Shown here in pieces: positions 45,601 to 64,000 of a stretch of 64,000 nucleotides of DNA (position 1 is the first letter of the stretch; every line of letters starts with the position of its first letter). Location: assembly GCF_056746865.1 (NCBI RefSeq), contig NZ_CM163382.1. The stretch is one strand, 5' to 3'. Position numbers: made by a program.

Positions 45601-48600
45601 TCCTCAACGAAAAACTGGCTAAACAGCTGGTAACTGCCGCGAACTGGGTAAAAATGCAGAGTGACGAAGGGGAAATCAACCCGGTTGATATTCTCCGCTG
45701 GCCGGGGGTAATGGCAGCCCAGGAGCAGGATCTCGACGCGATTACCGCTGAAATTCTCGCGGCGCTGGATGGTACGCTGGACGACTTTATCGTCGCACGC
45801 GAAACCGAAGGTCAGGCGCTGAAAGCATTGATCGAGCAGCGTCTGGAAGGCGTCACCGCCGAAGTGGTCAAAGTCCGCGCCCATATGCCGGAAATCCTGC
45901 AATGGCAGCGTGAGCGTCTGGTCGCGAAGCTGGAAGATGCTCAGGTGCAACTGGAAAACAACCGTCTGGAGCAGGAGTTGGTTCTGCTGGCACAACGAAT
46001 TGACGTTGCCGAAGAACTGGATCGCCTCGAAGCGCATGTCAAAGAGACCTACAACATTCTGAAGAAAAAAGAAGCGGTTGGTCGTCGTCTGGACTTTATG
46101 ATGCAGGAGTTCAACCGCGAGTCGAACACTCTTGCGTCGAAATCTATCAATGCCGAAGTGACGAATTCTGCCATCGAGCTGAAAGTGTTGATTGAGCAGA
46201 TGCGCGAGCAGATCCAGAATATCGAATAAGCTATCAGTAAAAATCACCAAGCAGCAAAAAACCACAAAGCCCGCGAAATGTCGGGCTTTTTTGTTATCAT
46301 GAGCTATCATAACGACGCAACAAAGCGCACAATATGCGTGTACATAGAGGTGTACATAATGACTTTCATGTACATTGCTTTATGTACACACCCATATTCG
46401 ATATTCAGGTATTCGCAATGCCAAAACTCACAGATATGCAGATCCGCGCATGGATAAAGGCGGGAGACAGATTTGATGGCAAGGCAGACGGCAACGGCCT
46501 TTATATTTGCTACCCCAAAAACTACACAGTCCCGTTCTGGCGATTCCGCTATAAGCTCGCAGGAAAGCAGCGGGCTATGGTTATAGGCTCTTACTCCGAA
46601 CTGTCACTATCAAAAGCCAGAGAAACAGCAAAAGAGCTGTCAGCCAGAGTTGCTCTTGGCTATGACGTAGCAGCAGAGAAACAGGAACGAAAAGCTGAAG
46701 CACTGGCAAAAATGGAGGCTGAGAAAAACGCCATGCGTGTTTCAGATCTGGCCTCCGAATACTTCGAGCGCCAGATACTTCCGAGATGGAAACATCCCGA
46801 TATCCTTCGCCGGAGAATTGATAAGGATATTAACCCCTGCATTGGGCATATGAAGGTGGAGGACGTTAAGCCACGCCACATTGACGACATGTTGAAAGGT
46901 ATCGTTGACCGAGGAGCACCAACGATAGCAACAGATGTATTACGCTGGACACGCCGTATCTTTGACTATGGGATAAAACGCCATGCTCTGGAGATAAACC
47001 CTTGTTCAGCGTTTGAAGTATCTGATGCTGGTGGTAAAGAGGTTTCCCGCGACCGTTGGCTAACTCGCGATGAGCTTATCAGGCTATTCGAGGCTATGCG
47101 CACCGCAAAAGGATTCAGCCGCCAAAACGAACTGACATTTAAGCTATTGCTGGCACTATGCGTTCGTAAGATGGAGTTATGCGCCGCACGATGGGAAGAG
47201 TTTGATTTAGATAGTGCTGTATGGCATTTGCCGGAAGAACGCAGCAAAAACGGGGACCCTATTGATATACCTCTACCTTCTCCAGCCGTTGAATGGTTGA
47301 GAGAGCTACACACCTTTTCATGTAATAGCGCATGGGTGCTTCCAGCCAGGAAGATGCAAAACAGAATGATCCCACATATTCAGGAAAGCACTTTACCCGT
47401 AGCACTGGCTAAGGTTCGCGCCGAAATGCCGGATGTGCCTAATTTCACGATTCACGACTTCCGACGCACCGCACGTACTCATTTAGCAGCGTTGGGTGTT
47501 GATCCTGTTGTGGCGGAACGATGCCTCAATCATCGCATTAAGGGCGTAGAGGGGATTTATAACCGCCATCAGTATTTTAATGAGCGTAAAGCAGCACTGG
47601 CACAGTGGGCTGATCTGCTGGTGGCACTGGAAAGCGGAAAAGACTACAACGTAACGCCTCTCAGAAGGGCGAACTAACTGAATAGATTGAGCCTAGCTCG
47701 ACGGGGCGAAAAGCGGGAAGCCTTACCGCCTGGCTCAATCACAAAATAAGGCGCAGCGTAAAAGGTGACGCAATGAACGACTCTCATGAAACAACTGCGG
47801 TGCATAGAAATTAGACTGGCCCCCTGAATCTCCAGACAACCAATATCACTTAAATAAGTGATAGTCTTAATACTAGTTTTTAGACTAGTCATTGGAGAGC
47901 AGATGATTGATGTCTTAGGACCGGAGAAACGCAGACGGCGTACTACACAGGAAAAGATCGCTATTGTTCAGCAGAGTTTTGAACCGGGAATGACGGTCTC
48001 CCTTGTTGCCCGGCAACACGGTGTGGCAGCCAGCCAGTTATTTCTCTGGCGCAAGCAATACCAGGAGGGAAGTCTTACTGCTGTGGCCGCAGGAGAGCAG
48101 GTCGTTCCTGCCTCTGAACTTGCTGCTGCCATGAAGCAGATTAAAGAACTCCAGCGCCTGCTCGGCAAAAAAACGATGGAAAATGAACTCCTTAAAGAAG
48201 CCGTTGAATACGGGCGTGCAAAAAAGTGGATAGCGCACGCGCCCTTATTGCCCGGGGATGGGGAGTAAGCTTAGTCAGCCGTTGTCTCCGGGTGTCGCGT
48301 GCGCAGTTGCACGTCATTCTCAGACGAACCGATGACTGGAAAGATGGTCGCCGCAGCCGTCACTCAGATGATACGGATGTGCTTCTCCGTATACACCATG
48401 TTATCGGAGAGCTGCCCACGTATGGTTATCGTCGGGTATGGGCGCTGCTTCGCAGACAGGCCGAACTTGATGGTATGCCTGCGATCAATGCCAAACGTGT
48501 TTACCGGATCATGCGCCAGAATGCGCTGTTGCTTGAGCGAAAAACCGCTGTACCGCCATCGAAACGGGCACATACTGGCAAAGTGGCCGTGAAAGAAAGC

Positions 48601-51600
48601 AATCAACGATGGTGCTCTGACGGGTTCGAGTTCCGCTGTGATAACGGAGAAAAACTGCGAGTCACGTTCGCGCTGGACTGCTGTGACCGTGAGGCACTGC
48701 ACTGGGCAGTCACTACGGGCGGCTTCGACAGTGAAACAGTACAGGACGTAATGCTGGGAGCGGTGGAACGCCGCTTCGGCAACGAGCTTCCGGCGTCTCC
48801 AGTAGAGTGGCTGACGGATAATGGTTCATGCTACCGGGCTAATGAAACACGGCAGTTTGCCCGGATGTTGGGGCTTGAACCGAAGAACACGGCGGTGCGG
48901 AGTCCGGAGAGTAACGGCATAGCAGAGAGCTTCGTGAAAACGATAAAGCGTGACTACATCAGTATCATGCCTAAACCAGACGGGTTAACGGCAGCAAAGA
49001 ACCTTGCAGAGGCGTTCGAGCATTATAACGAATGGCATCCGCATAGTGCACTGGGTTATCGCTCGCCACGGGAATATCTACGGCAGCGGGCCAGTAATGG
49101 GTTAAGTGATAACAGGTGTCTGGAAATATAGGGGCAAATCCAGAAATTTATGGCAGGAATCAGGTATTCCACCTTTGGACTACTGCACGATAGAGCGAGC
49201 ATCAAAATTATTAAATTGTGAAATTGATGATATATGGCATTGGAAAGATAGACTACATATAGACTTTTATGTCTATGCTGACTTTCTTGATTTCATTGAA
49301 GCTGATGCCACCATCCACTTCAAAAAAGATGCTGATTTTATAACTGATTTATTACTTATGTACCCAGAAGAAGTAAGGTTTACATTTCCTTTTCTTATTA
49401 CCAGCGCAAGCAACGAAGTTTATATCCCAGCATCTGAAAGCGGTGCTTATGAGCTATTTTATGCACATAAACCACTGACAGTTGAAGACAGAGACAATAA
49501 AAATGTTTTTGAACAAATTGGCAAAAACTCTTTTATTGTAAGAAAATCAATTGCATGTGGATTGTTGCGTGTACGCGGTAGTACAAAACGACATTATCAT
49601 TCACAAGAATGTGGAGAGCCATATGTGCGACTTGAAGCAACATTTGATTGTGATCTATATAAATTCAAAATGCAAAGTTCCCAGATTCACCTGAGTAGCC
49701 TGTCAGATAAAAACATTTATATAACAAAGGCTGATTTAGAATACCTTCACGACGCAAAGGTTAATGGAAGTTTTGACGCAGCTAAGAGCAAAAAACGATA
49801 CGAAATGGCGGTAGAACAGGAACTAATACCTGAAATAAAAAATAGCAACCATAATGCCGAGAGACATGCTGAAAACAGGGAAAAACTTTTCAAATCAGCA
49901 ATATATCTTTTGTCAAAGTATCCTGATGAATGCCGTGGCAAAAAGAAAGAAATAAGCCCTGAGAAGTGGCGGGATTGCATAGTGGCTCATAAAGACGAAA
50001 TTCCACCGTTAGCAATCACAAATGAAGATGTGATTTTGAGACACTTACGTGCTGCCGCCAACGGTAAGGGGTAGAGTAGCTAACTATTCAGGCACAGTAT
50101 CATTACTGTGCCTTTTTATTGTTCATATATGTACAGATACTTCCTCCCGTAACGAAGCAACAACTATCGCTAAGAGGTTACGGGAAGCATGAACACCGAC
50201 ACTATTCCTACAAAAGGCTATATCAGACGCTTCCGCCTGGCTGAATTGCTGGGCGTTAGTGTATCCACCATCGACCGTAAAGTAAGAAACGGTTCACTAC
50301 CACGTCCGGTAAAGCTGGGAGAAAAAATAACTGCGTTTGATGCGGTTGAGATTCACAACTGGCTGGCAGAACGCCGCGGGAAGGTGGTCTGATGGAAAAG
50401 AAAAACCGCCCATTACAGGCGGCTAATTCAGATATTCGCGTATCTGATGTTACGCCCCTTACAAAATCCCTTCAAGCACCAAAGCGCACACCGAAAAAGC
50501 ATCGTGCCAGAGTCTATATGCTGCGTACTGGTATAGAGGGATGGACAGAAAATGACATTCTTCGCTACTGCCGTCTGTCTTCTGGTCGTAACTATGCAAC
50601 AGAGTTAGAACGCCAGCTTGGAATCACTCTGGAGCGTATCGACGAAAAGAATCCTGATGGTATCGGAACACACCTTCGCTACCGTTTCTCCTGCCGTGGT
50701 GATGTTCTGAAAGTGATCACTCATGTTAACCATCTTGCGAGCATAAATGATCACAACGGACTTTCTCAGCAGGAAATTGCCGACATTCTGAAACTCTACC
50801 CGGACGCGTTTAACGCCGCCTAACGGAGACTGAAAATGAACATCGAAAAAAGCAGATTAATTTCTGAGGCCGCCCCTCATCTGAACGCCTCTCTGGGCAC
50901 AATTAACGGTAATGAATTTGCCGCAATTGTCCCGGTTATTCCTGGTCATATCGGTGGGCGTGAAACCAATATTGTTAGCGCAAAAGCGTTACACAAAGCG
51001 TTGGGCGTGGGAAAAGACTTCTCTACATGGATCACTGATCGCATCTCTGAATATGACTTCACCATTGGGCACGATTACTCAGTCCATAAAACAATTTCCC
51101 CAAATTTGGGGAAAAGCCCGAATGGCGCGGCTTACAGCAAGATTAAGCAGTCTGGCAGACCCGGCAAAGACTATCTGTTAAGTGTCGGAATGGCGAAAGA
51201 ACTGGCAATGATCGAACGCAATGATCAGGGTCGCGCTATCCGTCGTTATTTCATCCAGTGCGAGGAAGAATTACAGCGTAGCGTGCCTGAAATCGCCGCC
51301 CGCTATCGTCGCCAGCTAAAAGCCCGTATCAGTGCCGCAAACAACTTTAAGCCAATGTGCGATGCGCTGAATATGGCCCGTGCCGAGCAGGGGAAAACGA
51401 CGCAGCAACACCACTACACAAACGAGAGCAATATGATTTCTCGTATCGTTCTTGGTGGGCTAACTGCTAAGCAGTGGGCGCGGATAAATGGCTATTCTGG
51501 CGAACCTCGCGACCATATGAACGCAGAACAACTTGAGCACCTCTCATATCTCGAAAGCACCAATATCACGTTAATTGATATGGGCATGGAATATGAGCAG

Positions 51601-63600: not shown

Positions 63601-64000
63601 CACCGTCTTATCTCCGCGCTGCCGGAAGCAGAACGCCAACCAGCAATAGCATCTATTCTTCAGCATGCTGTGGCGCAGGGAGAGAAGGGAGGAATCGGTG
63701 AAGAGTCTGGTATCCAGTATTTTGCCAAGCTCATGACCCAGCAGAATGTAAACGCCATCAGTCGTCATGCGCCAGATCTCGGTAGAATGATGAAAGAGTT
63801 CGGTGTACTCGCTAAAGCCAGCACCAGACCGCAGCGATACGTAGAGCGCACGGGAAGAACAACTGAGGCTCTCAAAACGCTCGATTCAGGCCTTCCAAAG
63901 ATCGTCGGCGTGATTATGAACGGAGTTCAACAGTCAGGTGCGATCGCTGGAGGCTTTGGCGGTGGTGTAATTGGTTCGATTAGTGGTTTGGTTGCTGGTG

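Follow-up and report, generated by a model that had tools for sequence, protein, structure and literature searches.

We analysed a window of 64,000 nucleotides, the whole stretch taken from contig NZ_CM163382.1 of assembly GCF_056746865.1 (positions below are those of this window unless stated otherwise), which is Escherichia coli chromosome running through the lipopolysaccharide core region and then rph and yicC, and in which an integrative element begins at the end of yicC and continues to the window end. All credible genes from ~46.2 kb to the window end lie on the + strand, and the RefSeq annotation of near-identical relatives agrees, as does an initial annotation made from the sequence, which had placed all genes from ~46.3 kb on one strand. 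By gene order and sequence, the element belongs to the satellite family of EcCIMP1, the phage-inducible chromosomal island (PICI) of E. coli MP1 (Pick, Stadel & Raivio, ISME J 2025; PMC11773190): it is 94.6% identical to EcCIMP1 over the regulatory core, 50382-55853 (5.5 kb), and 98.9% identical over the ejection module, 58515-64000 (5.5 kb). EcCIMP1, placed by its authors as "Type C" under the SatelliteFinder scheme, excises and circularises only upon induction of the P22-like phage Kapi1, and both alpA and int are required (PMC11773190). With a probability of roughly 0.8, the window would thus hold ~18 kb, from the left end, of a phage satellite of this family that measures ~20-22 kb in full, with a PICI-like layout and P4/P1-like control. 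The family and the type of site (yicC) are already known, and the window element is an additional member.

The genes nearest the window end, recorded initially as phage-like virion proteins, are as follows, where pN/pS is the ratio of non-synonymous to synonymous polymorphism and aa stands for amino acids.

58920-59081, + strand: open reading frame (ORF) of 53 aa heading the operon, with only synonymous changes among relatives and 85-87% aa identity in diverged satellites
59098-59559, + strand: P22 gp14-like protein (DUF2824), PHROG 651 (E 1e-66), 83% aa identity to Kapi1_055
59553-60230, + strand: P22 gp7-like ejection protein, PHROG 598 (E 3e-70), 58% aa identity to Kapi1_056, pN/pS 0.06-0.12
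60230-61549, + strand: P22 gp20-like ejection protein, PHROG 917 and 2534, pN/pS 0.02-0.04
61546-64000, + strand, continuing past the window: fusion of an SLT domain with a gp16-like DNA transfer protein, PHROG 770 (E 3.5e-105) and transglycosylase families

By homology and gene order, this set is a P22-like ejection-protein operon, gp14-gp7-gp20-gp16 in the P22 order, and not a group of capsid or tail genes, so that the virion-type assignment stood but is narrowed to internal ejection proteins. Terminase, portal, scaffold, coat and tail genes were all absent from the window, and Kapi1 structural proteins gave no tblastn matches in the satellite loci. P22 procapsids recruit the ejection proteins, which subsequently make up a trans-periplasmic DNA conduit (PMC8402733). 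The 53-aa ORF, which had no family match in PHROG or NCBIfam, may, to judge from its sequence pattern, encode a ribbon-helix-helix regulator. More than 818 aa of the SLT-gp16 protein lie in the window, the protein being 906 aa long in relatives, and on the full-length homologue of the related genome G749 the Pfam SLT domain is N-terminal. This protein shares 44-50% aa identity with P22-like phages, and the phages Huey and Dewey also carry the SLT-gp16 fusion (44% aa identity over 95% of the length); since EcCIMP1 has the same module as well, the initial view that such a module is atypical for satellites was overstated.

Identity to Kapi1 drops along the operon, from 83% for gp14 through 58% for gp7 to 26% for gp20 and 25% for gp16. 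Within the gp14-like gene, a 292-bp patch (59191-59482) is 97.6% identical to Kapi1 and the rest of the gene ~80%, which points to recent recombination of the satellite with helper-type phages. For the gp20-like protein, the best match in 50,697 phage records reached 28% aa identity, as against 81-83% in diverged satellites, and its lineage has been seen so far in satellites only. Among relatives, changes in the operon are mostly synonymous (pN/pS 0.02-0.14). The full ejection module was present in 71 complete genomes, with all inspected copies in satellites, at yicC or thrW, and ten of ten gp20 relatives from IMG/VR stood in a satellite context, where AntAB, icd and primase preceded them and portal, coat and terminase were missing; among the ten, three are diverged members at 81-83% aa identity. 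Purifying selection together with this satellite-only context indicates that the operon is a stable functional part of the satellite and not debris.

Two small observations adjoin the operon. In the conserved non-coding stretch before it, a 29-codon hydrophobic ORF (MDSKNYIYGVALLFMAGAFQFCPCFWLHW) lies on the minus strand at 58671-58760 next to a hairpin at 58783-58827, where there was no Rfam match; the ORF may encode a small toxin-like peptide or be spurious. Directly 3′ of the gp16-like gene in relatives (32751-33449 of the G749 stretch; also in EcCIMP1, A20 and CV839-06) lies a gene for a 232-aa protein with a lipoprotein signal (…LLAGC), which is a candidate for the superinfection-exclusion effect reported for EcCIMP1.

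At the other end, the junction with the chromosome comprises three features.

46208-46229, + strand: attL identity block CAGATCCAGAATATCGAATAA, the final six codons and stop codon of yicC, from alignment of attL, attR and empty attB
46266-46295, + strand: hairpin and T-run terminator (terminator scan), carried by the element and now ending yicC
46338-46389, no strand assigned: three GTGTACATA repeats, two direct and one inverted, probable arm-type integrase sites

Many E. coli genomes have matches to the element region; of the complete genomes, G749 (85% coverage) resembles the window most closely overall and holds the same element between yicC and yicG, and variants occupy the same site in 042, A20 and CV839-06. 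A junction probe spanning the yicC-integrase boundary was run against complete genomes and matched 5,424, of which 461 were covered past the yicC stop codon, giving 461 of 5,426 complete genomes with the integrase adjoining yicC; in the remaining matched genomes, homology stops exactly at 46229, the yicC stop codon. Empty sites, for which the initial annotation had proposed a comparison, do exist, with yicG straight after yicC in some genomes. The element is therefore a strain-variable integrative element of the E. coli chromosome, and not a conserved backbone lacking integrase-linked boundaries. In the alignment, the empty site reads CAGATTCAGAATATCGAGTAAGCGAC…, attL reads CAGATTCAGAATATCGAATAAGCC… and attR of G749 reads …ACAAACAGATTC--AATATCGAGTAAGCGAC…, from which the crossover would be placed inside AATATCGA (46218-46225). 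Unlike in G749, the attR copy in A20, CV839-06 and 042 joins the K-12-type sequence downstream of yicC, CTCGTAACGCC, which indicates that the element has used both host variants of this region. The DNA 3′ of yicC occurs in two host versions, one bearing dinD (K-12, stretch coordinates 3330-4665) and one with yicG directly, and the satellite is joined to both; the K-12 yicC ends in GAATAA, as in the element-borne version, and not in GAGTAA.

Recombination thus takes place in the final ~20 bp of yicC, and the gene's stop codon and terminator come from the element. The terminator sequence is not present downstream of yicC in K-12 or empty-site genomes, and since homology to element-free genomes ends at 46229 and the att block lies inside yicC, the terminator is element DNA; an insertion right after the yicC terminator (46266), as first annotated, is thereby corrected. 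The absence of a tRNA at the junction was borne out, as ARAGORN found no tRNA or tmRNA in the window. The GTGTACATA repeats, with three matches against 0.36 expected in the whole window and all three at 46338-46389, are probably arm-type integrase binding sites, and one or two further copies lie just inside attR of relatives. The literature mentions PICIs with yicC as their integration site.

Between the integration genes and the replication genes lies a region of early genes and immunity-like RNAs.

50392-51844, + strand: conserved early genes for a 143-aa protein, an AntA/AntB antirepressor-like protein (50836-51669) and DUF4222 (51662-51844), with PHROG anti-repressor families
52219-52295, + strand: isrK-like RNA, Rfam RF01394 (64.3 bits, gathering score 50), with its own terminator at 52276-52289
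52320-52407, + strand: C4 / P4-CI-type antisense RNA, a putative immunity RNA, full-length match to Rfam RF01695 (77.1 bits, gathering score 45)
52464-52658, with its ribosome-binding region from 52447, + strand: icd-like gene, NCBIfam NF033153 (71.7 bits, cut-off 25)

The early genes are at least 96% identical in G749, 042, EcCIMP1 and A20, with pN/pS <1. In the second C4 hairpin, the loop UUUCCGAUAACG has its complement in CGUUAUCGGAGG (52447-52458), which overlaps the icd Shine-Dalgarno sequence, and GUUAUCGG inside isrK is also complementary to the C4 loop. P1 immI (c4-icd) and the P4 CI system have the same arrangement, and control of the element, judged from the isrK and C4 RNAs ahead of the icd-like gene and from the complementarity of the C4 loop, looks P1/P4-like. 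A long ORF at 51838-52869, named "ash family" in relatives, overlaps isrK, C4 and the icd-like gene; of the four relatives compared, three show 44-48 gap positions in it and one shows 3, and with such breaks the ORF probably does not represent a real gene as it stands. In a promoter scan, sigma-70-like sites were fewer in the window than in shuffles.

The replication module follows directly.

52651-54845, + strand: seven overlapping small ORFs of 72, 64, 87, 73, 200, 113 and 123 aa, leading into the primase gene
54832-57183, + strand: P4-alpha-like primase-helicase of 783 aa, Pfam Zn_Ribbon_Prim, Toprim_3 and DUF5906, PHROG DNA primase families
57209-57318, no strand assigned: iteron cluster 1, ACCTRTACC units, direct and inverted (repeat finder), a putative replication origin
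57354-58317, + strand: two ORFs of 78 and 245 aa between the iteron clusters, without Pfam match
58320-58430, no strand assigned: iteron cluster 2, GGTACAGGT units as in cluster 1 (repeat finder and direct reading), reminiscent of P4 crr

The 72-aa ORF (52651-52869) was read from the sequence, and the other six are kept in four relatives, with pN/pS ~0.1-0.7 and matches to PHROG families of unknown function. Past ~55853 the primase-helicase differs from those of EcCIMP1 and 042, with a breakpoint inside the gene at 55853, and among the relatives compared the 78-aa and 245-aa ORFs occur only in G749, which shares the DUF5906 replicon. In 042, with its DUF927-type primase, the iterons after the primase gene lie at the same place and are of a different type, GTTGGTTCA. 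Because the iterons change with the primase type, helicase and origin specificity appear to travel together, which supports the origin assignment. Upstream of perC, G749 also has three tandem TGAACCAAC units (stretch coordinates 35940-35975), the iteron type of the DUF927 replicon, despite its DUF5906 primase; these units may be a replicon-swap relic or a second cis site.

Integration and cargo genes occupy the left of the element.

46418-47677, + strand: yicC-targeting tyrosine integrase of 419 aa, Pfam Arm-DNA-bind_3, Phage_int_M and Phage_integrase, PHROG 1
47686-47752, + strand: int-alpA RNA motif, Rfam RF02996 (60.6 bits, gathering score 35.8)
47773-50074, + strand: variable cargo gene, 321 aa when restored, with coding parts 47773-47811 and 49148-50074, split by IS2 after codon 13
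47812-49142, + strand: IS2, 1331 bp, with the 5-bp duplication GAAAT at 47807-47811 and 49143-49147 and its ends read directly
50090-50113, + strand: strong terminator-like hairpin in the gap between cargo gene and alpA, a 10-bp stem and then a T-run (terminator scan)
50189-50392, + strand: AlpA-family helix-turn-helix protein of 67 aa, putative excisionase/activator, Pfam Phage_AlpA (E 2.5e-8), PHROG 66

AlpA is 98.5% identical to that of 042; compared with EcCIMP1 it shares 36% aa identity and no DNA match, and among relatives it varies together with the integrase. In other strains, the cargo slot holds different, unrelated genes. This shows that integrase, AlpA and cargo slot form an exchangeable integration module. 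The restored cargo protein had no match in PHROGs, NCBIfam or Pfam and only a weak one in PADLOC. Defence genes were also considered among the cargo gene and unknown ORFs and were set aside, as PADLOC, Pfam, NCBIfam and PHROG gave weak matches or none. IS2 has all its defining features here, namely two overlapping transposase ORFs, the characteristic ends, which we take to be the canonical IS2 end sequences, the length of 1331 bp and the 5-bp duplication; it is absent from G749 and 042, and among the relatives inspected the window copy alone carries it.

Compared with these gene contents, the initial annotation was right in naming a P4-type integrase, AlpA and an antirepressor-like protein (Pfam and PHROG matches), a P4-alpha-like primase-helicase (Zn ribbon, Toprim and DUF5906 domains) and repeat clusters, of which the repeat finder returned two, and more generally in describing a satellite-like integrative element that has P4-like and PICI-like features and sits at a site other than a tRNA. 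Its run of six coupled small ORFs is real as an overlapping run and miscounted, there being eight from icd to the primase gene, and IS2 had been missed.

The authors of the EcCIMP1 study identified no packaging mechanism and described three genes as vaguely similar to DNA transfer/DUF2824 proteins (PMC11773190). A packaging lead came from the relatives, which carry the motif GCGACAAGTACGCG, extended to TTTYGNGACMAGTACGCG, in 1-3 and typically 2-3 co-oriented copies per element, which lie either 3′ of the ejection operon or 5′ of icd. The Kapi1 genome holds a single copy, located within the Sf6-type terS gene, and beyond gp14 no DNA shared with Kapi1 was found apart from this 14-mer lead. In IMG/VR, the motif occurs in 119 stretches, 76 of them with it inside Sf6-type terS homologues, 31 in satellite context and 11 unclassified. 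Around the terS copies, conservation extends into the flanks and follows codon periodicity; for 52 distinct copies outside terS, it is confined to ~22 bp, with flanks at 0.1-0.4 bit of information. Remnants of a TerS-like protein were rejected as the main explanation of the motif copies on account of in-frame stops, unconserved flanks and short open frames. Two IMG/VR satellite members (stretch coordinates 11115-11498 and 12880-13263) encode a full-length homologue of the Sf6/Kapi1-type TerS with 66% aa identity, and those E. coli members that were examined have the short motif alone, without a full TerS. Leavitt et al. (2013) reportedly located Sf6 pac within the part of terS that encodes the DNA-binding domain, and if this location holds, the motif is a candidate pac mimic. 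In size, the relatives' elements (~19.5-20.9 kb) are roughly half of the 39.4-kb Kapi1 genome, which suggests that a headful would hold about two copies and would explain why there are no capsid-resizing genes.

Taken as an EcCIMP1-family satellite, the element may work as follows. In the resting state, the C4-type RNA would pair with the ribosome-binding site of the icd-like gene, keeping the small ORFs and the primase-helicase off, as in P1 immI and P4. A P22-like (Lederbergvirus) helper would trigger AlpA-dependent excision, and the primase-helicase would then replicate the circle from the adjacent iterons. The helper's Sf6-type terminase would package concatemers at the short pac-like sites of the right arm, outside the window, with about two copies filling one normal-sized head, and the satellite gp14 and ejection proteins would be loaded into helper procapsids, where they would build the DNA-entry channel or displace the helper's own proteins. 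Beyond the assignment to the family, we tentatively propose, at somewhat less than even odds, that this family pirates DNA delivery and not capsid size, with a private, diverged ejection set in helper procapsids and a dimer packaged in normal heads via terS pac mimics. Particles of this kind would use a channel made by the satellite to enter cells and might in this way evade exclusion systems directed at the entry of helper DNA. Neither delivery piracy nor packaging by terS pac mimics was found described for a satellite in the literature searched.

Several points weigh against the satellite explanation as a whole. The right end of the element and the helper lie outside the window, and the element is known here from sequence alone. 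The pac-like motif was found post hoc, and both it (TTTYGNGACMAGTACGCG) and the P22-type pac sequence are absent from the window, which ends before the right arm. The C4-icd model is built on family matches and 12 nt of complementarity, and IS2 may influence the expression of neighbouring genes. Kapi1 transduces EcCIMP1 at very low frequency (PMC11773190). Finally, the ejection proteins are only 25-58% identical to those of Kapi1 and could serve exclusion or interference instead of transfer.

The last point leads to the alternative that survives best, in which the operon is mainly an anti-phage or exclusion device that poisons P22-like virions or DNA entry and is dispensable for the element's own transfer. 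Superinfection immunity to Kapi1 is indeed increased by EcCIMP1, in which no known defence system was detected (PMC11773190); the great distance of the gp20-like protein from phage versions, with the gp14-like protein staying near the helper's, would also fit. However, Kapi1 titres after induction are not lowered by EcCIMP1, which argues against virion poisoning (PMC11773190), and a working delivery apparatus requires a complete syntenic gp14-7-20-16 set of just this kind. We regard a main role in exclusion as unlikely, with appreciable weight left to it, and it is compatible with the satellite explanation and does not exclude it. Far less probable is a dead chimera, that is, what is left of a P22-like prophage after fusion with a cryptic P4-like element, immobile and with decaying ejection genes. 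The lack of capsid, terminase, tail and lysis genes, the IS2 within the element and the broken long "ash" ORF of relatives could be taken in this sense, but all genes are intact, purifying selection on the ejection genes and the primase is strong (12-14 synonymous changes as against 1-2 non-synonymous), and the same architecture occurs with two unrelated integrases at two attachment sites and persists in relatives ~20% diverged at the protein level; moreover, EcCIMP1 is experimentally mobile (PMC11773190). Movement by conjugation, as in the yicC-targeting genomic islands of Vibrio, is least probable of all. The literature does give yicC as a target of IncC-mobilised islands, but no relaxase, oriT-associated or mobilisation gene was detected among the proteins scanned, AlpA, C4 RNA, icd, primase and ejection proteins mark the content as that of a phage satellite, and the sister element moves by phage transduction.

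For the preferred assignment to an EcCIMP1-type satellite, these data describe a family present in hundreds of complete E. coli genomes, in which integration, cargo, replicon and ejection modules are swapped, and they correct the junction, in that the element gives yicC its end and terminator. They also offer two testable leads on control and packaging, both unexplained in the only experimental paper, namely a P1/P4-type RNA switch and a 22-bp site shared with Sf6-type terS. Should satellite-specific ejection proteins indeed act in transducing particles, this would be a new way of exploiting a phage. The remaining interest lies in why the satellite maintains a strongly diverged ejection apparatus of its own, and in the control and packaging of the family. 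As a side observation on one relative, CV839-06 has a gene of the reverse-transcriptase family between slmA and pyrE (stretch coordinates 631-1590), which is not present in the window.

Set against known systems, the element shares with the ejection operons of P22-like phages (P22 14, 7, 20, 16; Sf6, HK620, Kapi1, Huey/Dewey) the four genes in the same order, and differs from them in that its gp20-like and gp16-like proteins are at most 28% and 44-50% identical, respectively, and its operon comes without coat, portal and terminase. With the immI region of P1/P7 (c4-icd-ant) it has in common a C4 RNA directly 5′ of an icd-like gene and complementary to the ribosome-binding site of that gene, whereas in the window the antirepressor-like gene lies upstream, and small ORFs and the primase gene lie downstream of icd. 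P4 resembles it in the domain architecture of the integrase, the AlpA-type regulator, the C4/CI-type RNA and the Zn-ribbon/Toprim/P-loop primase-helicase, and the two iteron clusters resemble P4 ori and crr; unlike P4, which has P2 as helper and no ejection proteins, the element carries ejection proteins and would use a P22-like podophage, and psu, delta, sid and epsilon had no PHROG or NCBIfam matches in the window or the relatives' right arms.

With Gram-negative PICIs such as EcCICFT073, the element shares the int-alpA-primase layout, its integrase, alpA, primase and adjacent iterons all running in one direction, as well as size, site-specific integration and the PerC of its relatives. Unlike PICIs, it holds four virion-associated genes (the gp14, gp7, gp20 and gp16 homologues), and terS, rppA and capsid-morphogenesis genes were found neither in the window nor in the right arms of G749 and 042. 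EcCIMP1 differs from it in the integrase (29% identical) and the target (thrW tRNA vs yicC), in AlpA (only 36% identical), in the helicase half (DUF927 vs DUF5906 in the window), the iterons and two genes that are extra in the window, and in the IS2 that fills the window's cargo slot; the C4/isrK RNAs and a packaging site are not reported in the EcCIMP1 paper (PMC11773190). EcCIMP1 and the window element have the same gene order from the 143-aa protein through the transglycosylase-gp16 protein, and the 53-aa ORF, the lipoprotein gene and PerC are common to EcCIMP1 and the relatives of the window element.

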